From a virus (Duplodnaviria > Caudoviricetes), in IMG/VR virus record IMGVR_UViG_3300044513_001810, positions 1-59,185 of that record: a DNA stretch of 59,185 nt. One strand, written 5' to 3'. Shown here in pieces: positions 4,873 to 28,278 of this stretch. Numbering within the stretch: position 1 is the stretch's first letter; each line of letters begins with the position of its first letter. The position numbers and the translations under genes were made by a program. The notes below the pieces were generated by a model. That model worked only from the letters and a program-made list of their open reading frames with translations, was not told the DNA's origin and did no database searches.

Positions 4873-5496
4873 CTATTCAAATTGTGACAGTGCGCTCTCA
4901 TCTAATACAGCCGTTAGGTCGCGTTGGTGCATGGTGTAAAACACCTCGCCCTCCACCTCATTCTCAAACTTTGAGTTTTTGGTGAACAACACATACTCGC
5001 CCACGGCTACATCAAGGGTCGGCTGGTCCTTTTCGGGGATGCCAATATGCCTCAATTTACCAATGTCCCAAGAAGTATTTTGCTTATATGCTTCCGGTAC
5101 GATGAAACTCCCAAAACGGGACTCCTTCTCTACCGGCTCTACAAATACCCAGCCGCCATTCATATGTAATACCCCATCTCGCTTATATGCGAAGATGTTG
5201 AAATACTCTACCTGGTAGTACTCCTTACCCTCATGCCACACCAGGTTATCCGGCGCAATAGTCAGATAGTGGAAATACACCTCGTCACCGACCTCCAACT
5301 CCATCTCCAATGTAGCATTGGCATAATGGCTTGGTGTCAGTAACCCAGGAACGGCCTCCACGATACCCTTAATAGATACATGGTGGGTCGGATTGTAGGA
5401 GGTGTCCAGGTAAAGTACCTTTCCCCCTTGAATTTCAATCTGGTTGTTATACTTTTGTGGTGCGCTGATAAGAACTATATCGCGAGCAGTCTTCAT
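4873..5496 (-). CDS. GroES-like co-chaperonin with two tandem GroES-like units
   Basis: LEVGDEVYF and VFVEP...IVPE...VAVGEYVLF...EVEGE motifs. Confidence 0.7.
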   Translation of the reverse strand: MKTARDIVLISAPQKYNNQIEIQGGKVLYLDTSYNPTHHVSIKGIVEAVPGLLTPSHYANATLEMELEVGDEVYFHYLTIAPDNLVWHEGKEYYQVEYFNIFAYKRDGVLHMNGGWVFVEPVEKESRFGSFIVPEAYKQNTSWDIGKLRHIGIPEKDQPTLDVAVGEYVLFTKNSKFENEVEGEVFYTMHQRDLTAVLDESALSQFE

Positions 5497-5757
5497 GTGG
5501 TTGCTTTTGTTGGTCCACTAATATATAATTTATTTATTAACCATTGGTCCAAAACGCTTGATTCTTTGAATTTTTTTTTCTAACTTCGCTATAGCCTATT
5601 AAGGCAATGTAGTTCTTCGGGCAAGCCCAAACAACATACCATTAGGTTTAAAAAAAACATAACTACCCGTCAAATTGTTAGTAACTACAAACAATTAGCC
5701 GTTTAGGTTATGCCGGACGAAAGTTAGGTGACGGGATTTTCAATATGGGCGAACTGT

Positions 5758-5784
5758 ATCCACTCCATCCGGGTGGATTTTTTT
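5758..5784 (+). terminator. Putative terminator
   Basis: ATCCACTC-catc-CGGGTGGAT hairpin followed by a T-tract. Confidence 0.55.
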
Positions 5785-6453
5785 ATACCCAATTGGCATC
5801 TATAGGCCCTTACCATCACACCCCTCTTACCACTCCGTTACCCCGTTCCGGGGAGGGCCATCTGTACCCGTAATTTTCTGGAGGACATATAGATACGGTG
5901 AGGGGGTAATACATATGTGTTGGTGCTGCTCCGTCCAGGAGGAAGTCAAAACCTGGAACCGGGTGGGGGTACATTTACGACATCACATATCGCATACCCA
6001 TGGATAGGGGACCCCCCACCCCCACAATGAGGAACTGGGGAAACCTTTTTGTCTACGCGAAGGCGTAGCAATTCCCTACACCCAGGACCACTTATCCCCA
6101 CCCCTCCACACCAGGGGGGAAAACCTTGACATGGTACACGCATGTGAATGATTAAATAATACGCGCGAGGTGGTCGGCGCATGAGCCGGAAGAGGTATGC
6201 TAATCGGCTCACTGGTTTACACTTTGAGGCCATTCTATTTTACACTTTGACGGACCGGTATGCGTTCCCTGGTACGCACCCTTCCCTTCGCCCTTTATAT
6301 GTACGCGCGCGCGCCTGGCGCACAGCGTTGTTGATAAGACCATGCGACAAATCACTGCACAAGTAAATTTTTTTTTCACTCTGCACACCGCATGAACACT
6401 GGGGTTCACGACAATCACCACCACCTCAACATAAATTTTTTTGTTGATAAGTG

Positions 6454-6483
6454 TTGACAATACGAAAACTATTCGTAGTATTG
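6454..6483 (+). promoter_or_regulatory. Early promoter (Bacteroidota sigma-type)
   Basis: TTG-N19-TAGTATTG matches the -33 TTG / -7 TAnnTTTG consensus with one mismatch. Confidence 0.7.
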
Positions 6484-6503
6484 TGATGTCGGAACGCGAC
6501 AAC

Positions 6504-6514
6504 GCTCTTTCACA
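6504..6514 (+). promoter_or_regulatory. boxA-like antitermination element
   Basis: GCTCTTTCACA versus boxA GCTCTTTAACA, about 20 nt downstream of the -7 box. Confidence 0.5.
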
Positions 6515-6516
6515 TT

Positions 6517-6630
6517 TCGGTTAACCCTCCCACGAGAACCAGTCCCCCGGTGCTGATGGTGTAAGCCCATGAACCCGGACGAAGTGAGTCACATTGCACA
6601 AGGCGATGTGCCGTCCCCGAAGTTAACCGA
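6517..6630 (+). ncRNA. Structured leader RNA of unknown class
   Basis: Closing stem TCGGTTAAC/GTTAACCGA; internal hairpins ATGG-TGTAAGC-CCAT and CACATTGC/GCGATGTG. Confidence 0.45.
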
Positions 6631-6650
6631 TACAGCAGATAGGTGATACC

Positions 6651-6709
6651 GCCACACTTGATGTGTACCATGTACGACATCGCAGAGGGTTCGCGACCCT
6701 CGTGTGGCT
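6651..6709 (+). ncRNA. tRNA-like element lacking a D-arm
   Basis: 7 bp acceptor GCCACAC/GTGTGGC, 5 bp T-stem GAGGG/CCCTC with TTCGCGA loop, and one internal hairpin GATGTGTAC/GTACGACATC. Confidence 0.65.
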
Positions 6710-6728
6710 CTAACCAATTTCAATTATC

Positions 6729-7064
6729 ATGAAATCAATCAATCCAACTGAAGATTACTTCAACCTTCACCGCAACGATGCAACCATCCTACGAGCCAGT
6801 GATGACTTCCGCAACGACCTCGGTCAGCGCATTACATTCTTCGAAGACCCAACACTTGGTGAGGATGCCCCAGTATGGGTTGCATTCCCCGATGACAAAG
6901 TCGCCTTCCGTTCAGACTTCTTCGACACCGAAGACATGACCGGAAAAATCCACAACATCATGACACCAGCCGAGGCTATCAAGTTAGGCTTGGATGGTAG
7001 CAGTGATTTGGATTATGTACCACGCTATGTGGACAGCAAGTTCTTCCTCAAGTTCGAGGAGTAG
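6729..7064 (+). CDS. Early hypothetical protein
   Basis: First ORF after the early promoter; acidic. Confidence 0.8.
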   Translation: MKSINPTEDYFNLHRNDATILRASDDFRNDLGQRITFFEDPTLGEDAPVWVAFPDDKVAFRSDFFDTEDMTGKIHNIMTPAEAIKLGLDGSSDLDYVPRYVDSKFFLKFEE

Positions 7065-7069
7065 TTCCC

Positions 7070-7125
7070 AGCACACTGATGAGGCCATGGGAGGCCGAAA
7101 CCGGACTACACATCCGGTATGTGTT
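7070..7125 (+). ncRNA. Hammerhead ribozyme, type I (HH1)
   Basis: Stem I AGCACA/TGTGTT, CTGATGA core, stem II GGCC/GGCC, GAAA, stem III CCGGA/TCCGG; GUA cleavage after 7119. Confidence 0.92.
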
Positions 7126-7160
7126 TAACCGGTCGCACTGCGACCACAATCTTATGTATC

Positions 7161-7364
7161 ATGCGTTTCATTCCAGCAACCGAAGACCAATTGTTTTCTC
7201 TATCATGTGTAAGCCGTAGAGGTGGTAGCCGTACCACTGCCGGTGCAAACTTCCAAGCCAAAGAGCGAGGCATCACTACCAAGGTCCGCAAGGCCACCCT
7301 TGAAATCAAGGAGAAGGTAGATGCCCAGTTCAGTAACACACGCCTCGTGTATGTGTGTGCATAG
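7161..7364 (+). CDS. Small basic hypothetical protein (67 aa) between HH1 and HH2
   Basis: ATG at 7161 after an AT-rich leader; HH2 begins 3 nt after the stop. Confidence 0.7.
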   Translation: MRFIPATEDQLFSLSCVSRRGGSRTTAGANFQAKERGITTKVRKATLEIKEKVDAQFSNTRLVYVCA

Positions 7365-7366
7365 CC

Positions 7367-7424
7367 AACACTCTGATGATGGACAAGGCAGTCCGAAACA
7401 TCCTCTACGGAGGGTGTCAGTGTT
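7367..7424 (+). ncRNA. Hammerhead ribozyme, type I (HH2)
   Basis: Stem I AACACT/AGTGTT, CTGATGA(T), stem II GGAC/GTCC, GAAA, stem III CATCCTC-TACG-GAGGGTG; GUC cleavage after 7418. Confidence 0.95.
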
Positions 7425-7447
7425 TAACAATTTCAACTACAACTATC

Positions 7448-7573
7448 ATGACTGATTTAGCAATCTCAACCCACGAAGCAGTACTATGTATGACTATCGG
7501 CCCAGCCGCAGTATGTGTATTCTCTTTCGTTACTTCTCTTATCCACTCAAAGATTCAAGAGCGTAACTCTTAA
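7448..7573 (+). CDS. Small hydrophobic protein (41 aa, MTDLAIST...) between HH2 and HH3
   Basis: ATG after an A-rich leader; one hydrophobic segment; stop lies just before HH3. Confidence 0.6.
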   Translation: MTDLAISTHEAVLCMTIGPAAVCVFSFVTSLIHSKIQERNS

Positions 7574-7577
7574 TGCT

Positions 7578-7635
7578 AACACTCTGATGATGGCCAAGCA
7601 TGGCCGAAACCCGGTTTACGGACCGGGTCAGTGTT
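7578..7635 (+). ncRNA. Hammerhead ribozyme, type I (HH3)
   Basis: Stem I AACACT/AGTGTT, CTGATGA(T), stem II GGCCA/TGGCC, GAAA, stem III CCCGGTT-TACG-GACCGGG; GUC cleavage after 7629. Confidence 0.95.
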
Positions 7636-7655
7636 TAACTAAAGTCTTAATTACC

Positions 7656-7835
7656 ATGACTGATTTACAAAAGGCTCAAGCCTTCTTTAGAATGAATGGT
7701 GTAGGTGCGGCTATTGACGAAGTCTACCTATACATAGAAGCCCATGGCTTTGAAGTGCAAGTATCTCAAGCAGAGATAGAGTTAAGAGCGGAATTGTACG
7801 ATGAGCAATTCAGCAATGTCAATGAAAATAAATAA
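7656..7835 (+). CDS. Small hypothetical protein (59 aa, MTDLQKAQ...)
   Basis: Starts ATGACTGATTTA like the gene at 7448; follows HH3. Confidence 0.7.
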   Translation: MTDLQKAQAFFRMNGVGAAIDEVYLYIEAHGFEVQVSQAEIELRAELYDEQFSNVNENK

Positions 7836-7841
7836 TGCCGT

Positions 7842-8312
7842 ATGAAAAATTTAGAAGAAAGCCGTGTGTACTACTTTGATGTACTGCACACAAGAGATGG
7901 GTACGACATCTACTGGTTGTACTCAAGAACTGATGCCGACTACAAGTGGGTCAACGGAACAAGGTATCCAACCAACAACATAGACCCGGACGAATTGTAT
8001 GTCAACGAATACGCGTTCTTTGAGGCTTGTGAGGACATCGTCAAGCAAGGCAAAAGGTTTATCAACTACGCCGTCAATGAAGAGGATATAAAACTATGGG
8101 AGCAATCGCTTCACAAGTCTTACCCTTTCCAGGAGGGCGATACCTACTACACGATTGAAGATGGTGAGGTAGTGGAGTCTTGCTGGGATTTTGTCAGCGA
8201 AGATATCTACGATTACCAAGTAGAGAATGAGGAGGTGCAGTTGTACTTCCCTTACAAGGAGGATGCAGAGAAGCACCTCAATAGTATTAACCAAAACAAG
8301 AATGCCGTATGA
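7842..8312 (+). CDS. Hypothetical protein
   Basis: Acidic ORF preceded by TGCCGT. Confidence 0.75.
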   Translation: MKNLEESRVYYFDVLHTRDGYDIYWLYSRTDADYKWVNGTRYPTNNIDPDELYVNEYAFFEACEDIVKQGKRFINYAVNEEDIKLWEQSLHKSYPFQEGDTYYTIEDGEVVESCWDFVSEDIYDYQVENEEVQLYFPYKEDAEKHLNSINQNKNAV

Positions 8313-8527
8313 TTAATGTAGAAAACATCATCAAGTACGAAAGTGGTGAGATGAGCCTCAAGGAGATGGTTCTATTCTTCGCCAAGTTGATTAAGAGTGG
8401 CGAAGCATGGTCACTCCAGGGACACTATGGCCGTAACGCCATGGCGATTATTGAAGCCGGTATCGTAGACCGAGAAGGCAATATTGACGAGGACATGTTG
8501 AACTATTACACTGAAGACAATGAGTGA
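8309..8527 (+). CDS. Conserved phage hypothetical protein
   Basis: YESGE...LIKSG.AWSLQGHYGR.A..IIEAG motif common in phage early genes. Confidence 0.8.
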   Translation: MINVENIIKYESGEMSLKEMVLFFAKLIKSGEAWSLQGHYGRNAMAIIEAGIVDREGNIDEDMLNYYTEDNE

Positions 8528-8867
8528 GCCAATTTTTGAAGATGGGTTTCAATTAGACCCGGAGTACATCGCATCTAAATTGCAGTACGAAGCCATCAAG
8601 AAAGCATACAGCCCGGAGTACTGGGGTGACCCTTACTATGCTTTCCTAATATCCCAGCACGAGCCATCGCTCGTGTTCGGGGTAGACGAAGCCGAACCCT
8701 ACGACACCGCGTGGGAGAAAGCCTTATCCCTGGCTAACAAGTGGGGAATGTGGGACCTTGAGAACCAGCAGAAAGGACCGCACTACACCGAAAGGTTATC
8801 CGGTTTGGATAGCCTCATGTTGTGGTTTGATTTGATTGATGAAGAAGGAAATATTAATTATAAATAA
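8520..8867 (+). CDS. Hypothetical protein
   Basis: ORF in the operon. Confidence 0.7.
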   Translation: MSEPIFEDGFQLDPEYIASKLQYEAIKKAYSPEYWGDPYYAFLISQHEPSLVFGVDEAEPYDTAWEKALSLANKWGMWDLENQQKGPHYTERLSGLDSLMLWFDLIDEEGNINYK

Positions 8868-8874
8868 GTGCCGT

Positions 8875-9036
8875 ATGACCAAATCGGATTTCATGTTCTT
8901 GTGTAATGAAGCAAGTGTTACACCGGAGGTAGCCCTGGAAAATAAGTTCGTTCGCCAGGTGCTAAAGGAAGACAAAGAAACGAACAGCGTTATTAATCAA
9001 ATCAAACTGGTGGCCGTATTGACCAGCCAGTTCTGA
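8875..9036 (+). CDS. Small hypothetical protein (MTKSDFMFLC...)
   Basis: ATG preceded by TGCCGT. Confidence 0.7.
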   Translation: MTKSDFMFLCNEASVTPEVALENKFVRQVLKEDKETNSVINQIKLVAVLTSQF

Positions 9037-9055
9037 TTGCAAACCATTATGCCGT

Positions 9056-9649
9056 ATGGATAGCAAATTAGCAAACCAAACAACATGTTCAGTATGCGAG
9101 GAGCATATTGAAGAACACGAGTACTACCAAGACAACCTCAAGACTGGAGAACCAGTTTGCGAGGGGTGTGTAGACCAATCTTACGCCTACCCCATGCTAA
9201 CCTCAACCACCTACCAGGATGGTGAGAAACAGCGTGTGATGTACAACGATACGCTGGGAGCGTTCATCGACTACGAGTACGGAGATATGTACGAAGAATC
9301 ACCGGACTACTCGCCAGTAGAAACCGCGAATTGGGTAAGCACCTCCGCATGGCGTGGGTACATGGGCTTCCAGCAGAAACCAGGATGGATATCATTGGAA
9401 AGCGGCTGGGCTACTGGTCGCTTTGACGATGTATCCTGGAAGCATGACTTCAATGATTTCATTGACAGCCTGGAGGCCGGAGAAGTAACCACGGACTTCC
9501 CGGTCGTGATTGTATCCGCACCGACATCGAATGTATTCAGCACAGCGATTGATGTGCTGGTCCGTAAGCGCGACTCCGAAGCGTTTTGGGAAATGTACCG
9601 CGAGAACTTTGGCCTCTCACCGGAGGACCTAACACGCTCGTTATCATGA
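9056..9649 (+). CDS. Hypothetical protein with N-terminal CxxC...CxxC zinc finger
   Basis: CSVC...CEGC; WVSTSAWRGY. Confidence 0.75.
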   Translation: MDSKLANQTTCSVCEEHIEEHEYYQDNLKTGEPVCEGCVDQSYAYPMLTSTTYQDGEKQRVMYNDTLGAFIDYEYGDMYEESPDYSPVETANWVSTSAWRGYMGFQQKPGWISLESGWATGRFDDVSWKHDFNDFIDSLEAGEVTTDFPVVIVSAPTSNVFSTAIDVLVRKRDSEAFWEMYRENFGLSPEDLTRSLS

Positions 9650-17922: not shown

Positions 17923-20900
17923 TTAGTATTCAAAGATATTGTTAACTGGTCGGTCAGTCAAAGATATAGGCCAAGTATCTGATGTGTTGCCGATGTTGTT
18001 CAGCATTTCCTGGGCTGCGTTTAGGTAATCCATTTCTTCCGCAGTCAATCCGGTGCTTGCATCCTTTGCCGACAAAGAGGTGACTATGTATTCCGCTTGT
18101 AGGTATACGGTAGCATACTTGGAAGCATCGCGAACAACTTGATTCAACACCTTCTTCAACACCTCTTGCTTCTTGTTGTCGCGCAAAGCATTCACATCAA
18201 CAATACCATCGTCAGCCACATCAATAAAGTCCTCAACAGCATCCTCCGCTATCTCAAGTAGTCCGCTTTCAGACAACTCAAGCATGCGGTCTTTAATCTT
18301 CGCGCCACGCAACACATAGAACTTATACTCTTGTATGTTGTCCATAGGAATTGCACGCTGGTACAAAGCAGATTCTGAATCATACACAACCATGCCTGGA
18401 TATGTAGGTGCTGGAACAAAGCAATTGTTCATGACAAATGTTTCGTAGAAATACTCCCTTGCATAGTCACTCACCTCGTTTTGAGGAGGCTCTGATATCA
18501 TTGGGAAGTAACGGAACGCGTCTGGCTGTACTGGGTCACCAAGCACATCCACCAATGGGTGGTTTGTTTCATTGGTAAACATCAACATCTCACGCTTCCA
18601 GTTGTCAAGTAATTCAAGACGCTGGTTCAACGGCATATTGTTATAGTCAAGAACCGAGCGGTTCAACTGCTGTACAAAGTTCGGAACTGTAAGGGTCTTC
18701 ATTGTTTGCTCTAACTTTTTGTAGATATAAGTGTCTTGCCATGAACCGTCTTGTCCAGCACTACTTCCAGACGAAGGAATACCCTTGAACAACTCTTGCA
18801 GTCCTTGAACGAATGTGTAGTCTGACAAGCCTTCAAAAAATGCCGTGACACCAATCGTTGCTTTAGTCATGAACTCATCTATTCCAGTCTGCTGGTCCAG
18901 TAATCCTTTCTCTTTGAAGTCTTCGTAATCAGTAATAGCACCCAGCGACATAAACACCAAGGAGAGTGGGGTTTCTCGGTACTCCATAACCTTTGGCTCA
19001 TCAAGCAATGGTCCTCCAGGATAAGCGCGGTAGAAGGTGATTGTATAGGGCTTCCATCTTCCGTCCATTTGTAACTGGTAATCTTTATATGGGTCACCAG
19101 TTCCCCCTCCAGTAATCTTCCATGCCGGTAGTTTCTCTTCATCGTCATCATCGCCAAACGATTTCATGCCAGCCAAGAAGAATCCCATTACGGAAGTTCC
19201 GAATACTGCGCGAGCGTATGCGCGGCGGCGAGAATCCTGGTTTCTGAACACCTGGTATCCAGGCTTTCCAAGACCTCGTGCAACAGCATCACCGGCTATG
19301 TTTACAAACTGCAAAGGCGTATAAGAATACAGTCGGTTACCAACATTTGCAAGCACCTTCAAGAATGGGATATACAGTGCCTTACCTATACGCATGGCTG
19401 AATCAGTCACTGCGCCAGTACCATCCTCTTCCAACGCGCGTATCATACCACGATATATCTTACCAAGCACACCGGCCGGCTCGTTCATGAATATGTTTTC
19501 AGTTGCTATGCGCTCCGCCTCTGCCTCTATATCATTTAGAGCCAAGTCTTGTTGCTCAAGTTCAGCGATTCGCAATCGGAATCCATTGGTGTGTGGCTTG
19601 TAGCCCTCGGCCACGGCTTGAGTTCCGTATTTCTCACGGCGCGCTTGGCGTTGCTCTACGGTTTCATCGCCCATGACAACAAGGAGAGCGTTCTCTTCAA
19701 GCAATGCTAACTCCTCCTGGCTCATAGCATCGGTGTCCCTACCTTGCGCCAGGCGGTGCATGATAACAGAAACCTCACCACCCTTGGACATACGGCGCAT
19801 GCCGATATCCACAGCAGAAAGCATGCGGCCGGGCAATTTCATGAACACCGGATTAAAAATCTGTAGTGCAGTGCGGCCTAATATCGTTTCAACAGCACGC
19901 CAAACTTTATTGTCGGCCGTACTTGTATAAGCATCATCACCCCACAACTGGTTGAACCCATACATCTCGTATAGAGGAACCTTGGTTGATTGCAATGCAA
20001 ACTTATCTGAACCGCTACGCTCGTAACGAATACCAGTCTTTAGAGTAAACCAGGCTTGGTCTAATGCCGGGAACACCGAGCGACCCACACCTCCCCAGTA
20101 CTTAAAGAAGGACATTGGAGATAGATTTGCCAATGGTAAAACAATACCTTCAGTCACAATACTGGCGATGTTAGCCGCAAAGTTTTTCAATTGCGTACCA
20201 AATCCAGACAGCATGTTAGAATAATACTGCGCCTCGGCAATGTCAAATAAAGAAACCCCTTCAAGTTTTGAAATCTTCTTGAGTAACTCAAACTCTGCCT
20301 TGACATACTCTTGCGTATTGTCTTGGTAAGATTTCATAATCTCCGCCAAGTTCTTTATCTCTTCAAGGTCTGCTTCAGTATATGGCACACCCTTCTTATC
20401 AAGTTTGCGCTTGATGTACGCCGCCATCGTTTCACCGCCGGCACGAGATATCAATGAGAACGCCTGGATGAACTGACCAGCACTGGTCGCGTCAAGTGCT
20501 AACTGCTCCACCATATCTCGCAACGCCTCACGGTAGTTTTCTGCAAGGGCAACTGCACCGTTAGAGTCTAATTCAAGAATCATGTCACTGATACGCTCAT
20601 TGACTTCATTAAACAATGCCACACGAACTGCACTAAAGCGGAACGACTGTGCGTTTGCACTTTGATTTTGACGGCCTTGCTTGGAGCGAGAAGGGATAGG
20701 CTCTGCCGAAGACGGAGCATCAACCCTTTTGTCCTGGAACAGTAGGTTGACACGGTCCGGCTCTACCAACATTCTGATAGCGGCTGGTAATCCAATCTCG
20801 TCTATCAACAACTTGGCTTCCGCACGAGTCATCTGATTAGAACGAGGGAAATAACTCTTTGTGTTTTCAGTAATCTCCTCGGTAGTTCTTTCGTCCGGTA

Positions 20901-23900
20901 TGGCCTTGGCCCAGGTAGAAGCAGTCATACGCTCCTTGGGTTGGGTAGCAGTTTCACGACCGCCAACCATTACCAGGTTGGTAGCCGCTTGCCTTGACAT
21001 GCCAGCATCTACAAGTTTTTTGATAACCCTCTTCGGAGGAAGCCCACTATCCAATGCCTTCTTGACAACGCGCTCAAATCTCTTGTCGCCATCAATACTA
21101 AAGTACAACCCGGAAGAAGCCATAGGGCGCGCTGGACTCATGTTCATGTTCTCGTCCATACTTGAGTTCATGTATCCAGCCGCCTTGTGGGACTTGATAG
21201 ACTCTTGCATAGTAAAGAATGGGAGGCGTGGCAACTTGGCCAGGCCAGGGAACATAACCTCGTGTGGTTCAAAGCGGTTGCGCTTCTTATCCCACAACGC
21301 CCACTGCGACATAAAGATTCCAAGGCCGTTGCGCGTGGCAACTTCATTGTTAATCTGCAATGCCTTCAGATAGAAGTCGCCAGGGATACTAACCTTACCG
21401 TCTTTTGGTGAGGTCAATAATTGGTTGTACTTACCCACGAACTCCGTGAAGCGTGGGTTGATTTGACCAGTCTTGGCAACCTCATACACCGCTTGCTTTT
21501 GACTAACAAGGTCAAACATAGACATCATAAAGGCTTGGTTAGCACCTCGCTGGGCCATCAAGTCGTCAAGGTTTGTCACCTCAACAGACTCTGCTGTAAC
21601 AAAGTCGTGCTTGTCAATGTACTCTTTCTTGTCTTTAGCGGTACGCTTCTTGCCTTTGTATATGTCGCGAGCCTTAACGGCATTGTTCCACTTGGCGATA
21701 ACCTTGCTCTCTAATTTGGCGCGGTCCGCGCTGTTAGCCAATAACTCCGTTTCAAATACACGAAGCATGTGTCTGTCCATCGCGCTGATAGCAGCCACCA
21801 GTGGGTCTTGCCACACACCGGAGAAGGAGGCTGTCTTGGCTTGTAGGCCACGGACCTCGGTCATCATACGCGTCATGAAAGACACCCATGTTTCATCCGG
21901 TGACTTGGCAAAGAAGTCCGCGCCTTTGTTCTGCCCTTCAATAGGAGAGTCCATTCGGAACTTAAACGCCAACTCGGCAAGGTTTGTATACTCACCACTA
22001 CTCTTGATTCCAAGACCGCCTTTGTCTGCGGCTTGCGCCTGGAAGAAGTATGTGATTTTTTCCTCAAGTGCTGCACGCTCCTCCTTGGTCATGTTAAGTG
22101 GGTCGGCAACGCCAGCCAACATGTTAGCATAACCTTGGATGGTAAGCACTGGAACTTGCTCGGCTGTTAGAGATTCAATCTCACCAGTAAAGTACTGGCG
22201 GATTAACTCGTCAGATTCAGCATGCTCAATGGCTTGAACTCTGCCCACAGCAACTTGGAACTCGTTTGGAGTAAGCGGTTGATTGGGTGATAGTAGGCCG
22301 AAGATAAACCCATTGAAGACTGATACCGAATCACCCTTCTCCGGAGTCATAGTACGACCCAACTTGCGATATAGTTTGTTGCGGTTAGACTCGTTGGTAA
22401 TTTGTGCTGGATTCCAACCTTGTTGTTTCATCCAAAACAATTCAGCAAACGAGAACACGCCGTCCTCAATGCCGCCAGGGATGTTCCAAACAACACCTGG
22501 GGCCATCTGCACTGATACAGTTTCCCTAACCTTACCGAGATTACTTACACCATACTTCTTACCGTAGTCATTCAACGGTAAGCCGCCTACGCGGAAGTCA
22601 GATGTGTTTTCGTCCCATGTTAGTTCAAGGGGAGTAGATATTAACTCCGGGTTTCTCGTTGCGAATCCTTGTTCACGGAGGTACGATGTTTCGGCGAACG
22701 CGAGTAAGCCATGAAGTTCCGGGTTTGTCCGGTAGAGGTCTGGATTTGCATCCCGGAATCCTCGAATTGTTTCAAGATATCCGCCCTGGTCACTTGTTTC
22801 TTCATCAAAATTTCTTTTACCTGGTATTACTTGCGCGCCACTCTGCAAATCAGTGCCTAATTCAGCACCTAAACCACTCAAGAAGTGTAGCGCATCTTGA
22901 ACTTCTTGGTCGTTTTCTGGAAACAAATGTAATAAATTGTCACCATATGTAATAGAGAAGCCTTGGATTCCGGCTTCAAACATTCTCTTTCTAAAATCTT
23001 CACTGGCCTTTTCGTTGCCGTCAGAACCAAGGACATTTCCAGGAACCGGGATACGCATATAGAAATTCGTATCGTCAGCAGTCGGGTCAAGGGTAGTGTC
23101 TTCCGTAAAACGAACAACACTTTCTTGCTGGTCTGGTGCAATAGCACCAAGCACTGCCGTGAACAACTTAATGTTTTCCGGGTCACCATTAATCTCAAGG
23201 AATTGAGATGCCTCTTGCAAGAATCGTCCGGCTTCGTTGCCCATAAAGGTGTATCCACCGTGCGCTGGTGACTGCTGGCCAATCTCAATACCCAACAAGC
23301 CGGCAAGTTTACTTGTCTGTTCTGATAAGTACTGGAATTGAAGCGTCCCATGCACACCGTTTACATCCTCAAGTGTTAGTGTTTCTACCGAACGGAACGG
23401 AGCAACGCCAATCTTCGCCGCTTGTGACGGCGTTATAGATAGGTATAGGTTTGACTTCTTAACCGCCTCTGCTCCTAACGGATTTGTTATATCAACAGAC
23501 GGTAGGTTTTGTTTTGAATCAACAGCAAATCGCTTGACGCGCGGCGTAGTGTTTACCGCCTGGTTGTATTCATCTGCTGTCTGACCAAACGGATTGTCTA
23601 CGATACTCTCGTTGAGTTTATTTGAATTGATTATAACTGCTTCATGATATTTTGAGATATCTGAACTTACATACCAACCATCAATACCACTCTCCTCCAA
23701 ACCCTTGCGAACATTGTTCATCTCGCCGTAGTTTGTACCGTTGTAAGTAAACATTGTGAGGTCGTGAAGCGATAGGCCAGCCATGCTCTCACCGGCCATC
23801 AGTCTGTCTGCATAGTATGCCGCAGCATCCGTTGTCCACGCAGATGGCGCACCACCAAGACCTTTGTTTGCTCCGTAAAACTCATCCATCTTTGTGCGGT

Positions 23901-26900
23901 AGTCAACATCACTATAGATGTACTCATCTCGGATAGCCTTAATTTTTTGCGCTTGCTCGGCCGTCAAGTTCATCAAGAACCTAAAGTCATTCTTAAACTT
24001 TCCGTCTTTCATTAAAGTAACCAAGTCGGAAAACTTCGTATCATAATACGGCAACAAGTTCATGTTCTCTGGATTAGAGAACACAAAGTAGTTACCATAG
24101 TCGTTTGCCTTGTATGCGGCATTGGTAAAGTAAAGACCAGTGCCATATGTTCCAGCGCGGTATTGAGGGTTGAAAGAGTTCAGACTCTTCTCCATCGTGC
24201 CGTGGAAGAGTAGCCCAGAGTTTCTCGCGCTCTGCAACATAGGAATGTCTGCCGCCATGGCAAGGTAGATTCCTGGTTCTGCTGTAGGTGCTGGCGTAGG
24301 CTCCATGGAAAGAGATACCTCTGAATCAACGCCATCAATCGTAACGGTATTCTCGCTCTTGGGTTGCACACGGCGTTGCGTACCATCTAACAACTCAAGG
24401 CCGTAGCGGTTTGCTTGTTCATATAGAATGTTTTCGCCGCCGATTTTTAATATAGTGCCATTGCTTTGACGAAGGCCAACAATACCGTCAGTCACTTCTA
24501 AATCACCAATCGCATATTGACCCCGTGTATCTCTCATGACAACACGCTGGTTTTGCATTTCACCAACAGTAGGCACAGCAATGCCGGAAGACATATCCCC
24601 AGTTACAACTTCATATGCACCACGGTCAATAAATTCGCCCAGCGTATACTCTTCAAAACGCTTGTCTGTTAAGTTTAGGGTCTTCTGTAAGTAGTTAAAC
24701 AACTCATCAATCATTTTAAGGAGTTGTTGTAAACCCGGTGAATCTTTTGCCGTCAAGGCTAACTCTGCACGATTCTCAATAGCATGGACAATCGCCTCCA
24801 TTGCGCGGAGGTCTGTCCCGGTGTACTCTGCAATATCGGGTACAAGACCCATAATCCCAGCATCGTTCTTGGCCAACTCTATCATCTTGTTATACAAGTT
24901 GGTGTTGTTGGCCTTAACATAATTTAACCACACATGAGTAAATTCATGGATGGCTGTACCAAGTGTTGCTGACTCTGGGTTTAGGAATATGGTGTTTGTG
25001 GTTTCATCGTAGAATCCTTTGACCTCTTTCTTGTTGCTCTCTTTAAGAGTTGGAAACTGCTTCATCACGCGATTGCGATAAACCTCGTCAAACGCGGCTT
25101 GGTCTGTGACAGCAGATGTGCCAGGGAAGTTCTCCTCAAGTTTCTTTGCCAACGCACGAATGTGTGGTGCGGTGCGAGATTGAGTCGGCACTCCAAGGTT
25201 GTTTAGGTCATCTGCCAACTCATCCTCCACGCGGCGAGCCGCCTCGTTTTCCTCTTGGCTTGGGACAGCCGGGTCGTTGTTTCTTGTGTTTAATGACGAT
25301 GGGTCCTCACTGGCCCGTTTGATTACATCGTTTAAGTTTTCAGTTAACTCATTAACAACCGGGTCAAGTTGAGGTGTTGACCCTACTTCTGTAAGGGCAG
25401 CCAACGCAACATTGACACCGTGCAATTCCATAATCTGCTGGTCAGTAAACGACTCACCCTTGTTCAAATCAAACGCAGTGCTTTGCCCGTTTACCTGGGC
25501 ATTGGTTTGAGCAGATGCCGTTTCCAGGATGCGGATGAATTTGTCTGCATCTTGCTGTGTGAACTCTCTAATGGTTTCTCCGTCTTCGTCAACAAACTTA
25601 TTACCGACATAGTCATTGATAATGTTGCGAGTCCTTTCCGGATTCAAGTGCATGCGGAACAACAAGTCCTTCTGCATGTGAGCAAGGTTGCCGTTCGTTT
25701 TAACAACATTGACCATTGGAAAGATAATACCAACAGTACCACCAAGTATCATTTGGTCTACGGTTCCAGGGCCAAACGACTGTATGTCAACATTCCCTTT
25801 ACCGGCTTGACCGAGAAGAAAACTGGACGCGTCTTGAGCAAGAGGTTCAAATATACCCTCCTCACTGGCCTCCATTAAGCCGGCCTTCCAAAATGTACTT
25901 CCGTACTGGCTTGCTCCGTTACGGAACATTTGAAGACGAGTGTTGTAACTGCCTCTTATAAAGCGATTTACATCACCCTTTTTAACCTTACCCCACGCCT
26001 TGTATGTGGTGTTAAATTCCGGGTTTAATCGGTTAACCGTCACCACAGCAAAGGTTCCACCAAGGGCATGGTATGCCGCTTCAGTAGGGGTAAGACCTTG
26101 GTCAAGGTAACTCTGATACATTCCGTTATGCATCTGCATAGCCATTGTGAGTTCCGCCCCTTGACGATAAGCAATTTGTTTAACTGCTTTTTCAGTTAGT
26201 TGCGCTTCAGCAAAGCCCAGAGTTCTTTTAATTCGGTTACCAGTTTTTACGGTGAGTTTAGCCGTTTTTAGACCAATGCCGGCCTTGGCCCAACCAGCAC
26301 CACCAACAAGCATGGTTCCTACATCAAAAGTTGTATTCATGGTTTGAAACCAAAAGACACCACTGTTAAATTGCTGCTTGCGCTCTTTGCCAGCAAGAGT
26401 ACCCACGATTCTGTTAGACAAAGCCTCGTCAAATATCATGTACCCATCCTCACCTCTAATAGAAGTATAATCTTTATTGGCACTTTGCATATCTTCATAC
26501 TCAACAGTATAAGTCTTGCCGTCTACCACAGTGGTCATAGCATACGGATAAAATGAACCCATATGATTTGATGAAGTTCCAAACCCAGCGTATTGCTGTG
26601 GGTCCAAAACATCAAGGAATTTGTCTGCCCACCTATCCCAGGAGGTGTAATTTTCTGACGCAATACCCGTCATATCTCCAACGGTAAGGGTAATGCTATT
26701 TACAAGACTTACCCCACCTTGAACAAGGGCCAGAGCCTTACCGCCTCCATAAGCGGTTGCACGCACTTGATGACCGACAAGTGACTTAACACCTACATAA
26801 GGCGTATTATAAGAGGCATCCACTACATCTGCCATAGTGTTTCCAACCCAAGGGACTTCTCTTAAACCAGCCTCTGTAGCCTCAACGAATGCATCAACAC

Positions 26901-28278
26901 CCAGGTAAGCCATAGGGTCTTTTTGGAATGCGTCTATTCTTTTTTGTCGCTCAATATCTGCTGCCAACGCCTGGTAGTACAGAGGGTTCTCATCCTCAAG
27001 GTTTTCAATGGCAGTAGCATACTTGTCAACCCACTGCATGAAGCGTTGGTACTCTTGAAACTCCGAGCCTTCAACCAAATCGTTATAGAACTCAATCGCC
27101 TGGTTTACCGAGCCGCTAAAGGCAATCTGCTTGTAATCCGGTTTGCGTTCCGTATAACTTCCATCTCGGTTTTTAGTGACATTACTGGCGTAATAGTAGC
27201 CTTCGGGCGGCTGCTTGGTTCCGGGCGCACTTTTGTTTCCAATGACAATGGCTTCATCTAATTGTTGAAAAGACACCCTATTAAATTCATCAAATACATT
27301 TCGCAGATTGTTTTTAAAGTCGCCAAAAGTAGCATACTGCTCGTTTGTTCCTCTGATATAAGGGTCTTCATTGGAATAGAAAGCGTAGAGTTTTTGGTCG
27401 TTAAGGCCATCGCTATTAGTGTACTCTTCCACCGCTTCTTGAAACAGAGTAAGTGTTTGTACTGCTTTGTCAATATTTATCTGAAATAAGCCAAGTTGGT
27501 CCCATTCTTCAGCCCAGTCTATACCAAATTTTTTTTGGCCATATATCAATAAAGAATTAAATCCTTCTGATGCTCTACGCACGGCTGTAGTCTGGTCAAA
27601 CAACTCATGCTCCAGGTGAAAGTCGGTATCTGTAACGGAATAAATAGTTTGCTCATACTCCTTACCGTCAACCTCATATGTAAAAGTGGTTTCCTGGTAG
27701 TCGTCACTTCGGTTATAGTAGTCTTCTTTTTTTCGTAACTGGATGTTCCACCCTTGCTCTCTCTCTAAAATTCCACCAAAGTCGTAGAGGTCTAAACTAA
27801 TTAAGTTGTTGTGACGAGTAGGGTTGGCAAGTATCGGATTCCAAAAGTTAAAGTTGACTTCTCTGTTTTCCTTGATTTCTCTGCGCTCGGCAGCACCATC
27901 AAACCACTCGCGTGCGGTCATTGCATTAGGGTCGTCACAAGGAACAACCTGGCCACGCTCATTGTAACACACCTCGTTTCTTACACGAGGACCACCAGTG
28001 GTGCTTGGTATAAGAGAACCCCCTTCACTTAATCCGGCAGAAGAAGTTTGGCCTCGCATCTCTTGTATCTCAAGAGGGTCGCCAGCCTCCAAATCAATAG
28101 CATTCCTTTCTTTTTCGCCAAACCTATCGTCAATAACTGCCATGGCTTCAAACGCCGCAGCACGGAAGGTTTGGTCTGCCGCAAACTTGCCGGTAAACTC
28201 TTCTAATTCTAAATTAAAATCATCACCGAGTCCACTGCTTAATGTTTTGTGAATATCATTGATATTGTACCCAGCCAT
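17923..28278 (-). CDS. Giant internal virion/ejection protein, polyvalent (3451 aa)
   Basis: Located after the tail and ejection genes; HEFTH zincin, FHGT...GLYFT ART-like and GLQAKTASF...MDRHM HhH-GPD-like motifs. Confidence 0.8.
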   Translation of the reverse strand: MAGYNINDIHKTLSSGLGDDFNLELEEFTGKFAADQTFRAAAFEAMAVIDDRFGEKERNAIDLEAGDPLEIQEMRGQTSSAGLSEGGSLIPSTTGGPRVRNEVCYNERGQVVPCDDPNAMTAREWFDGAAERREIKENREVNFNFWNPILANPTRHNNLISLDLYDFGGILEREQGWNIQLRKKEDYYNRSDDYQETTFTYEVDGKEYEQTIYSVTDTDFHLEHELFDQTTAVRRASEGFNSLLIYGQKKFGIDWAEEWDQLGLFQINIDKAVQTLTLFQEAVEEYTNSDGLNDQKLYAFYSNEDPYIRGTNEQYATFGDFKNNLRNVFDEFNRVSFQQLDEAIVIGNKSAPGTKQPPEGYYYASNVTKNRDGSYTERKPDYKQIAFSGSVNQAIEFYNDLVEGSEFQEYQRFMQWVDKYATAIENLEDENPLYYQALAADIERQKRIDAFQKDPMAYLGVDAFVEATEAGLREVPWVGNTMADVVDASYNTPYVGVKSLVGHQVRATAYGGGKALALVQGGVSLVNSITLTVGDMTGIASENYTSWDRWADKFLDVLDPQQYAGFGTSSNHMGSFYPYAMTTVVDGKTYTVEYEDMQSANKDYTSIRGEDGYMIFDEALSNRIVGTLAGKERKQQFNSGVFWFQTMNTTFDVGTMLVGGAGWAKAGIGLKTAKLTVKTGNRIKRTLGFAEAQLTEKAVKQIAYRQGAELTMAMQMHNGMYQSYLDQGLTPTEAAYHALGGTFAVVTVNRLNPEFNTTYKAWGKVKKGDVNRFIRGSYNTRLQMFRNGASQYGSTFWKAGLMEASEEGIFEPLAQDASSFLLGQAGKGNVDIQSFGPGTVDQMILGGTVGIIFPMVNVVKTNGNLAHMQKDLLFRMHLNPERTRNIINDYVGNKFVDEDGETIREFTQQDADKFIRILETASAQTNAQVNGQSTAFDLNKGESFTDQQIMELHGVNVALAALTEVGSTPQLDPVVNELTENLNDVIKRASEDPSSLNTRNNDPAVPSQEENEAARRVEDELADDLNNLGVPTQSRTAPHIRALAKKLEENFPGTSAVTDQAAFDEVYRNRVMKQFPTLKESNKKEVKGFYDETTNTIFLNPESATLGTAIHEFTHVWLNYVKANNTNLYNKMIELAKNDAGIMGLVPDIAEYTGTDLRAMEAIVHAIENRAELALTAKDSPGLQQLLKMIDELFNYLQKTLNLTDKRFEEYTLGEFIDRGAYEVVTGDMSSGIAVPTVGEMQNQRVVMRDTRGQYAIGDLEVTDGIVGLRQSNGTILKIGGENILYEQANRYGLELLDGTQRRVQPKSENTVTIDGVDSEVSLSMEPTPAPTAEPGIYLAMAADIPMLQSARNSGLLFHGTMEKSLNSFNPQYRAGTYGTGLYFTNAAYKANDYGNYFVFSNPENMNLLPYYDTKFSDLVTLMKDGKFKNDFRFLMNLTAEQAQKIKAIRDEYIYSDVDYRTKMDEFYGANKGLGGAPSAWTTDAAAYYADRLMAGESMAGLSLHDLTMFTYNGTNYGEMNNVRKGLEESGIDGWYVSSDISKYHEAVIINSNKLNESIVDNPFGQTADEYNQAVNTTPRVKRFAVDSKQNLPSVDITNPLGAEAVKKSNLYLSITPSQAAKIGVAPFRSVETLTLEDVNGVHGTLQFQYLSEQTSKLAGLLGIEIGQQSPAHGGYTFMGNEAGRFLQEASQFLEINGDPENIKLFTAVLGAIAPDQQESVVRFTEDTTLDPTADDTNFYMRIPVPGNVLGSDGNEKASEDFRKRMFEAGIQGFSITYGDNLLHLFPENDQEVQDALHFLSGLGAELGTDLQSGAQVIPGKRNFDEETSDQGGYLETIRGFRDANPDLYRTNPELHGLLAFAETSYLREQGFATRNPELISTPLELTWDENTSDFRVGGLPLNDYGKKYGVSNLGKVRETVSVQMAPGVVWNIPGGIEDGVFSFAELFWMKQQGWNPAQITNESNRNKLYRKLGRTMTPEKGDSVSVFNGFIFGLLSPNQPLTPNEFQVAVGRVQAIEHAESDELIRQYFTGEIESLTAEQVPVLTIQGYANMLAGVADPLNMTKEERAALEEKITYFFQAQAADKGGLGIKSSGEYTNLAELAFKFRMDSPIEGQNKGADFFAKSPDETWVSFMTRMMTEVRGLQAKTASFSGVWQDPLVAAISAMDRHMLRVFETELLANSADRAKLESKVIAKWNNAVKARDIYKGKKRTAKDKKEYIDKHDFVTAESVEVTNLDDLMAQRGANQAFMMSMFDLVSQKQAVYEVAKTGQINPRFTEFVGKYNQLLTSPKDGKVSIPGDFYLKALQINNEVATRNGLGIFMSQWALWDKKRNRFEPHEVMFPGLAKLPRLPFFTMQESIKSHKAAGYMNSSMDENMNMSPARPMASSGLYFSIDGDKRFERVVKKALDSGLPPKRVIKKLVDAGMSRQAATNLVMVGGRETATQPKERMTASTWAKAIPDERTTEEITENTKSYFPRSNQMTRAEAKLLIDEIGLPAAIRMLVEPDRVNLLFQDKRVDAPSSAEPIPSRSKQGRQNQSANAQSFRFSAVRVALFNEVNERISDMILELDSNGAVALAENYREALRDMVEQLALDATSAGQFIQAFSLISRAGGETMAAYIKRKLDKKGVPYTEADLEEIKNLAEIMKSYQDNTQEYVKAEFELLKKISKLEGVSLFDIAEAQYYSNMLSGFGTQLKNFAANIASIVTEGIVLPLANLSPMSFFKYWGGVGRSVFPALDQAWFTLKTGIRYERSGSDKFALQSTKVPLYEMYGFNQLWGDDAYTSTADNKVWRAVETILGRTALQIFNPVFMKLPGRMLSAVDIGMRRMSKGGEVSVIMHRLAQGRDTDAMSQEELALLEENALLVVMGDETVEQRQARREKYGTQAVAEGYKPHTNGFRLRIAELEQQDLALNDIEAEAERIATENIFMNEPAGVLGKIYRGMIRALEEDGTGAVTDSAMRIGKALYIPFLKVLANVGNRLYSYTPLQFVNIAGDAVARGLGKPGYQVFRNQDSRRRAYARAVFGTSVMGFFLAGMKSFGDDDDEEKLPAWKITGGGTGDPYKDYQLQMDGRWKPYTITFYRAYPGGPLLDEPKVMEYRETPLSLVFMSLGAITDYEDFKEKGLLDQQTGIDEFMTKATIGVTAFFEGLSDYTFVQGLQELFKGIPSSGSSAGQDGSWQDTYIYKKLEQTMKTLTVPNFVQQLNRSVLDYNNMPLNQRLELLDNWKREMLMFTNETNHPLVDVLGDPVQPDAFRYFPMISEPPQNEVSDYAREYFYETFVMNNCFVPAPTYPGMVVYDSESALYQRAIPMDNIQEYKFYVLRGAKIKDRMLELSESGLLEIAEDAVEDFIDVADDGIVDVNALRDNKKQEVLKKVLNQVVRDASKYATVYLQAEYIVTSLSAKDASTGLTAEEMDYLNAAQEMLNNIGNTSDTWPISLTDRPVNNIFEY

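Follow-up and report, generated by a model that had tools for sequence, protein, structure and literature searches.

Clustered hammerhead ribozymes that flank single genes have been described in phages, with cleavage shown for three such arrays and circular products proposed (Perreault et al. 2011, PMC3088659), and the role of these arrays is still called unknown in reviews (PMC6765202). We analysed an array of three hammerheads, HH1, HH2 and HH3, in a block of small early genes of the IMG/VR virus record IMGVR_UViG_3300044513_001810, hereafter the window, which comprises the whole record of 59185 bases. Its layout is that of the phage arrays of Perreault et al., known since 2011, in which several hammerheads of the same orientation stand in the intergenic gaps of a phage polycistron and flank single genes of varying identity. 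For those arrays the proposed role was the cutting of long transcripts to single-gene messages, circular or spliced products were also raised, and pseudoknot-type contacts were common. The array in the window differs in that all copies are type I with an open stem I of six base pairs (bp), in that three of the five paralog ribozyme types overall have an extra U after A9, and in that the family is missed by Rfam at the gathering score. The relatives moreover add a hybrid ribozyme at the joint of a gene insertion or deletion (indel), which is not met in the passages of that paper covered here.

Two further systems bear comparison. In T4-type phages, the repeated regulatory cassettes named PeSLs mediate gene shuffling, and DNA mini-circles have been shown for them (Arbiol et al. 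2010, PMC2839356). As with PeSLs, small, non-essential early genes of a hyperplastic region lie between short repeated modules, and recombination between the copies explains indels and replacements between close relatives. In contrast to PeSLs, the module in the window is a self-cleaving ribozyme with a translation leader and not a strong early promoter with a terminator stem-loop, and it would act on one transcript rather than start and stop many. Retrozymes and viroid-like circular RNAs offer the other likeness, namely a unit between two hammerheads with matching stem I, whose 5'-OH and 2',3'-cyclic phosphate ends can rebuild a ribozyme (de la Pena et al. 2020, PMC7761336). The unit in the window, however, is DNA-encoded in a syntenic operon of a lytic-type phage, codes for a 41-residue protein conserved in one relative, and is predicted to form its closing helix rarely. 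No reverse transcriptase, long terminal repeats or target-site duplications turned up in Pfam/PHROG scans of 21 open reading frames (ORFs) and a reading of the flanks, no dedicated search having been made. The explanation that we favour, and hold to be probable with some reserve, is that active hammerheads cut the early RNA into single-gene messages and that the ribozyme-leader unit also serves as a recombination joint at the DNA level.

By direct reading and a hammerhead descriptor scan of the whole window, exactly three hammerheads were identified and none further. All lie on the plus strand, one in each gap separating ORFs A, B, C and D, and together they span 566 nucleotides (nt):

7070-7125, plus strand: HH1, type I hammerhead; stem I AGCACA/UGUGUU; triplet GUA; cut after A7119 (7119/7120)
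7367-7424, plus strand: HH2, type I hammerhead; stem I AACACU/AGUGUU; triplet GUC; extra U after A9; cut after C7418 (7418/7419)
7578-7635, plus strand: HH3, type I hammerhead; stem I as in HH2; triplet GUC; extra U after A9; cut after C7629 (7629/7630)

The core pattern CTGATGA-N(8-30)-CGAAAC has three copies in the 59185 bases, all on the plus strand and within 550 nt, compared with 0.07 expected from shuffles, none of which (0 of 100) reached three. The core C3-U4-G5-A6-N7-G8-A9...G12-A13-A14 is complete in all three (CUGAUGA...GAAA), as are the NUH triplet, the A15.1-U16.1 pair and the 1.1-2.1 pair next to the core. An extra nucleotide between A9 and stem II, as in HH2 and HH3, occurs in a viroid hammerhead. 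Folded alone, each element adopts the hammerhead as its minimum free energy (MFE) structure, at -18.3 kcal/mol for HH1, -20.4 for HH2 and -23.6 for HH3, with folding z-scores of -1.6, -2.5 and -3.6, respectively. Each ribozyme begins 2-5 nt behind the stop codon of the preceding gene and is cut 26-41 nt ahead of the following ATG. A first-pass annotation of this DNA had pointed to the stem I, core, TACGG and flanks shared by HH2 and HH3, and this is borne out: common to the two are stem I AACACU/AGUGUU, the core with its extra U, the UACG loop of stem III and the 3'-side GTCAGTGTTTAAC.

To follow the array in relatives, we scanned metagenomes with an alignment of ORF E, a conserved gene downstream of HH3, which gave ten loci, and then applied the descriptor and a covariance model, R1, built from 17 hammerhead copies and run on 170676 bases from 14 sources. 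Hammerheads of the same family were found once in L008, five times in L010 and four times each in L011 and L012. The R1 search returned 17 strong matches of 54.9-85.6 bits (HH1 75.4, HH2 82 and HH3 85.6) and a single weak one in L016 (16.2 bits, E 0.24), while neither R1 nor the descriptor found a hammerhead in L005, L006, L007, L013-L015, L017 or L009, and Rfam found none in L005-L007. In an alignment of 18 model matches (14 distinct rows), which was fitted to the model and hence leans towards the structure, 87.6% of cells hold a pair versus 72.0% in shuffles, and two-sided changes occur in 9 of 18 pairs (4 of 6 in stem I, 2 of 4 in stem II and 3 of 8 in stem III). In 500 shuffles, the paired percentage, the two-sided pair count, the number of cells with changes in both partners and the covariation score were never reached, and the count of further pair types was reached in 9; when pairing partners were slid against each other, paired cells fell to 24-51%. 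The 14 copies in L008 and L010-L012 differ from those of the window at one core position only, N7 (U or C), the free position of the hammerhead core. HH1 has identical orthologs in L010 and L011 and one with a single core change, at N7, in L012, and HH3 has orthologs in L008, L010, L011 and L012. Judged by this comparison, HH1-HH3 are conserved, structurally constrained ribozymes.

The same comparison bears on the suggestion in the first-pass annotation that HH2 and HH3 are a duplicated cassette. A shared stem I, core and gene start are there, but the two are not recent duplicates, because compensatory changes set their stems II and III apart and related contigs hold a separate ortholog of each. 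The annotation was also right that the two downstream genes both begin ATGACTGATTTA before diverging: the window has just two copies of this string, one opening ORF C (7448) and the other ORF D (7656). We nevertheless rejected it as the mark of a duplicated gene start, given that the C and D proteins share nothing past MTDL and that ATGAC starts are common, with 9 of 37 long ORFs beginning ATGAC (Thr as codon 2) and 3 of 37 ATGACT, which leaves only the following GATTTA specific to the pair. The alignment of D with its L007 homolog runs from D3 to L007 residue 9. At most, the 12-mer shared by C and D would be a small junction remnant.

A tertiary contact between stem I and stem II is needed for fast cleavage at low Mg. 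The 3 nt 5' of stem I can pair with loop II and vary in concert with it (CCC/GGG in HH1, GCC/GGC in HH2 and in HHx of relatives, GCU/AGC in HH3), and in HH3 and HHx this pairing reaches 5 bp, although non-cognate combinations give similar values (3-5) and HH5 does not fit. If real, the contact would account for the observed start of the homology blocks slightly 5' of stem I, by a few nucleotides, where they overlap the upstream stop codon. Pseudoknot contacts of this kind were reported in about 40% of hammerheads (Perreault et al. 2011, PMC3088659).

The genes between and behind the ribozymes, whose variation among relatives carries the second part of our explanation, are as follows (aa, amino acids):

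6729-7064, plus strand: ORF A, 111 aa; first gene of the plus-strand block; leader UAACCAAUUUCAAUUAUC-AUG, without a ribozyme
7161-7364, plus strand: ORF B, 67 aa; between HH1 and HH2 (or the hybrid HH2x) in all four genomes holding it
7448-7573, plus strand: ORF C, 41 aa; hydrophobic stretch AVLCMTIGPAAVCVFSFVTSLI; payload of the 211-nt piece 7419-7629
7656-7835, plus strand: ORF D, 59 aa; gene behind HH3 in the window only
7842-8312, plus strand: ORF E, 156 aa; conserved anchor gene for finding relatives; preceded by a AATGCCGT-ATG junction
8875-9036, plus strand: gene K, 53 aa; ribozyme-free between G and H in the window, directly behind HH3 in L008 and L010-L012

The gene orders of the window (plus strand) and of related contigs are:

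Window: A-HH1-B-HH2-C-HH3-D-E-F-G-K-H
L010: A-HH1-B-HH2-C-HHx-X(441 aa)-HH3-K-E-F-o60-G-HH5-H
L011: A-HH1-B-HH2x-X'-HH3-K-E-F-o60-o74-G-HH5-H
L012: as L011 without o74, and with an unrelated gene replacing A
L008: X-HH3-K-E-F
L009: X-E-F-G-K-H, 95% identical to the window from 7832 onward

The clearest joint is at gene C: the window and L010 have the gene, whereas L011 and L012 lack it and carry HH2x in its place. From its upstream flank through CGAAAC, HH2x equals HH2 of L010 with 2 mismatches, flank included, and from stem III through the whole leader to the ATG it equals HHx of L010, with 3 mismatches in the ribozyme half and 2 just before the ATG. The hybrid is still a complete hammerhead by R1 (75.1 and 75.8 bits). 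To judge from these matches, the crossover at the gene C indel is inside the ribozyme, and its occurrence in both L011 and L012 probably reflects a single event. A boundary case is HH3 of the window, which has gene C at its left, as HHx does in L010, while its body and right flank are of the HH3 type; X, which lies between HHx and HH3 in L010, has no homolog anywhere in the window (tblastn). Behind the HH3 leader the window has D where the relatives have K, with homology lost no more than 6 nt from the ATG and regained 10 nt ahead of E. The replacement of ORF A in L012 begins 7 nt inside the ORF and stops 3 nt short of HH1, L009 lacks the HH3-K module where X meets E, and the G/H junction holds K in the window and L009 and HH5 in L010-L012. 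Like those described for PeSLs, several of these joints thus fall in repeated intergenic modules: HH2x at the indel of C, the indel of X between HHx and HH3, and D or K behind the HH3 leader.

ORF A is 98% identical in L010 and 92% in L011, and an unrelated 93-aa ORF stands instead in L012. ORF B differs from its counterparts in L010, L011 and L012 by 8-10 synonymous and 0 non-synonymous codons, has homologs of 41-47% identity in L018-L021 and has no Pfam or PHROG family match; from the codon comparison it is clearly coding and under strict purifying selection. The homolog of ORF C in L010 (75% identity over 36 residues) also begins ATGACTGATTTA and has two flanking hammerheads, and L011 and L012 have none. 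Homologs of ORF D occur in L007 (40% identity, E 3e-14) and L015 (57%), with no hammerhead before either, and K in the relatives begins ATGACTAAATCAGATTT. Gene content between and after the conserved hammerheads thus does vary among relatives, and, with one crossover inside a ribozyme, this comparison supports the proposal of the first-pass annotation that the ribozyme is the homology unit for exchange of early genes.

The breakpoints amount to about nine events, all at gene junctions, with ribozyme junctions not clearly over-represented relative to others. One might regard the hammerheads as selfish or decaying passengers of mobile cassettes, which bring the phage no benefit and are kept as they travel with genes. 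Their patchy presence, with none in L005-L007, L013-L015 and L017 and no HH3-K module between X and E of L009, would agree with this. We find it extremely unlikely all the same, since none of the 17 copies has a damaged core, all three helices are upheld by compensatory changes, even the hybrid HH2x makes a full ribozyme, and HH1 is identical in three genomes whose ORF A protein differs by up to 8%.

Of the explanation that we favour, the DNA comparison covers one half; the other concerns the RNA. Most likely, the early block on the plus strand is transcribed as one long RNA. No promoter-like site was found at 7064-7660 on the plus strand, and the lone terminator-like match within this interval on that strand is stem III of HH1. 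Upstream of the block there is a sole promoter candidate, a possible start of a polycistronic early transcript:

6454-6481, plus strand: sigma-70-like promoter candidate (TTGACA, 16 nt, TAGTAT); 10 of 12 consensus matches; about 250 nt upstream of ORF A

The three hammerheads in the gaps between A, B, C and D would cut this RNA as it is made. Each upstream message would then end in the compact hairpins of stems II and III with a 2',3'-cyclic phosphate, and each downstream message would begin 5'-OH-(A/U)GUGUUUAAC, followed by a short A/U-rich leader ending UAUC/UACC-AUG. In a phage that makes little use of Shine-Dalgarno (SD) sites, each gene would gain a message of its own headed by a standard 5' leader, with a presumed effect on stability or translation. 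The unit of ribozyme and leader, together with the ATGAC start, is repeated along the early block and may for that reason act as a recombination joint, at which crossovers between copies would delete, insert or exchange the intervening genes, in a direction and by a mechanism that we can only infer.

The leaders themselves are conserved. UAAC follows every copy of HH1, HH2, HHx and HH3, the leaders end UAUC-AUG or UACC-AUG, and the motif UAACCAAUUU...UAUC-AUG is also found ahead of ORF A despite the lack of a ribozyme there; the HH5 copies of relatives use UUAACC as the 3' side of their stem I. The ORF B leader contains a further hairpin, read from the sequence close to where the HH1 cleavage product starts, and a similar one stands after HHx in L010:

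7131-7145, plus strand: hairpin GGTCGC-ACT-GCGACC

An SD-like 4-mer is found upstream of just 4 of the 37 long ORFs in the window, which suggests a host not reliant on Shine-Dalgarno pairing. On an alternative view, the main selected function is translational: the cut would free a 5' end and an unstructured leader before each small gene, so that ribosomes of a non-SD host load on internal cistrons, and stability and shuffling would be by-products. The low SD count would fit, as would the position of every cut 26-41 nt before an ATG, followed by the conserved A/U-rich leader that is also found in the primary 5' untranslated region of ORF A. A 2026 paper (PMC13725137) reports that RNA viruses of eukaryotes use ribozymes to start translation, cutting a few nucleotides ahead of the ORF, but that precedent concerns eukaryotic hosts. 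In the same block, moreover, E, F, K and H are introduced by ribozyme-free AATGCCGT-ATG junctions, and the distant L007 and L015 use a hairpin and the same kind of leader, likewise with no ribozyme. We therefore regard a primarily translational function as unlikely, though it deserves to be kept in view.

The hairpin and leader of L007 and L015 form a repeat of their own, in which a stable hairpin plus UUAAAUUU(U)CAAU(G/A)ACU-AUG recurs before successive early genes, for example as GAGGGGG-N6-CCCCCTC and then TTAAATTT(T)CAAT(G/A)ACTATG:

L007, 3105-3150, 3318-3345 and 3583-3605: hairpin-leader repeats
L015, 4265-4315 and 4500-4545: hairpin-leader repeats

From its sequence and position, this arrangement looks like a functional counterpart of the ribozyme-plus-leader module.

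The first-pass annotation had also raised circular RNA, and the geometry that it described is right: the released piece 7419-7629 measures 211 nt, and its 5' AGUGUU can pair with AACACU at 7578-7583 and so rebuild HH3. According to this alternative, the piece, made up of the leader, the membrane-type ORF C and the greater part of HH3, becomes an exonuclease-resistant, protein-coding circle through hammerhead self-ligation or a host RtcB-type ligase and serves as a long-lived early message, for which the matching stem I of HH2, HHx and HH3 is kept. Besides the exact fit of the 5'-OH AGUGUU end to the internal AACACU, it is in keeping with this that the C piece of L010 (204 nt) likewise lies between two hammerheads with compatible stem I, that stem I is kept in HH2, HHx and HH3 while stems II and III covary, and that in L018 two hammerheads with identical stem I surround a single gene. 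In the linear 211-nt product, however, the pairs of the closing helix have ViennaRNA probabilities of only 0.002-0.005, and enforcing it costs +3.9 kcal/mol; for the C piece of L010 the figures are 0.006-0.009. These are equilibrium predictions, with which closure by a protein ligase remains compatible. C is absent from L011 and L012, and stem I is compatible only among HH2, HHx and HH3, as the combination of HH1 and HH2 has a U.U next to the cut and HH3 and HH5 are incompatible. In the B piece, five of the six closing pairs have probabilities of about 0.36-0.47 in the window and 0.50-0.66 in L010, with the U.U mismatch beside the ligation site; a mispair directly adjacent to the core is a rejection criterion for hammerhead candidates in Perreault et al. 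(2011, PMC3088659), who also found no circular or spliced product from other phage arrays (data not shown there). Conservation of stem I as part of the leader, through its UUAAC motif, accounts for the identity without circles: a constraint on the 5' end of the downstream message would explain the shared stem I of paralogs at least as well as the matching of ends, because the leader is conserved across genomes with or without a ribozyme. We therefore think circularisation of this piece very unlikely.

Two observations stand beside this question. In the MFE structure of the cleaved 211-nt piece, the start region of ORF C (7445-7452) pairs weakly with part of the HH3 core (7584-7591), a predicted pairing that could couple ribozyme folding and translation. 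L018, in which the B homolog is 46% identical, has two HH5-type hammerheads (5338-5396 and 6047-6108) around a 212-aa gene, with the same stem I GGUUAA/UUAACC and near-identical leaders, and a sub-threshold PreQ1 riboswitch match at 4954-5001 (29.2 bits vs 39).

Several points weigh against cutting into single-gene messages combined with exchange at the ribozymes. At gathering score, Rfam gives 0 matches in the whole window, and at E up to 10 only a partial Hammerhead_3 match on HH1, at 23.7 bits against a cut-off of 48.5. With the defining core and helices in place, we attribute the miss to the models and not to the motif, and it means that curated Rfam models overlook a whole lineage of marine phage hammerheads. 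The carriers are few, with five contigs holding the family (the window, L008, L010, L011 and L012) and a more distant form in L018. The promoter at 6454-6481 is weak, the whole scan having found 9 candidates where shuffles lead one to expect 7.3. The contig of L009, which is the closest relative downstream of 7832, begins 15 nt before X and so covers the block only from that point on. Mosaic joints of phages fall at gene boundaries in general, and here too some breakpoints are ribozyme-free: at AATGCCGT-ATG before E, at F/G, at o60/G, at o74 and 50 nt inside the end of X. The ribozyme is therefore one of several junction modules, and the evidence specific to it consists of one clean intra-ribozyme crossover and the one boundary case of HH3 in the window. 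Finally, we infer cleavage, the extent of the transcript and the fates of its products in this phage from sequence, while the motifs, their covariation and conservation, the differences in gene content and the hybrid ribozyme are direct observations.

A second type of junction in the block, (A/G)TGCCGT, immediately precedes the start codons of E, F, K and H (7832-7841, 8299-8308, 8865-8874 and 9046-9055) and has no ribozyme. It usually overlaps the upstream stop codon and also marks homology breakpoints between relatives, and from this placement it may be a signal of translational coupling in a phage without Shine-Dalgarno sites.

Other searches for relatives were less productive. A blastn search of 6700-8400 against a phage collection gave no match, and IMG/VR yielded distant relatives only: queries with ORF A and with gene K were fruitless there, while ORF E found L007. 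The one locus from an IMG/VR pattern scan for the core plus GTGTTTAAC, L004, was rejected as a chance match inside a coding sequence, without stem II. L005 and L006, found via the primase-helicase, have neither a hammerhead nor a DNA match to 5400-9100, and the contig of L006 begins only at the equivalent of ORF H, which makes it uninformative for the array.

The record is a complete IMG/VR entry with an estimated completeness of 95%, and we take it as phage because Pfam/PHROG scans of its proteins match an SU10-type major capsid protein, a portal, a large terminase and a primase-helicase. The window is an uncultured marine podovirus-like phage with a nearly complete genome, and a tRNA scan of it found none. 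Minus-strand genes extend up to 5496, and the plus-strand block of small genes runs from 6729 on. Between these divergent blocks, 5497-6728 is 1.2 kb without ORFs, partly G+C-rich with runs like GGGGACCCCCCACCCCCAC, 78-84% identical to L010, L011 and L012 and without an Rfam match; its conservation and position suggest that an origin, promoters or a structured RNA could lie there. A minus-strand ORF of 3450 aa (17923-28278) has no significant Pfam/PHROG match, and its size is reminiscent of the virion-packaged RNA polymerases of N4-like phages.

In a literature search of partial coverage, no paper tying hammerheads to phage gene shuffling was found. This locus is a compact comparative case, with five paralog ribozyme types over five related contigs and a natural hybrid where a gene has been gained or lost. 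Should further genomes bear the pattern out, self-cleaving ribozymes would take their place beside promoter-terminator cassettes among the recombination joints behind the turnover of early genes in phages.

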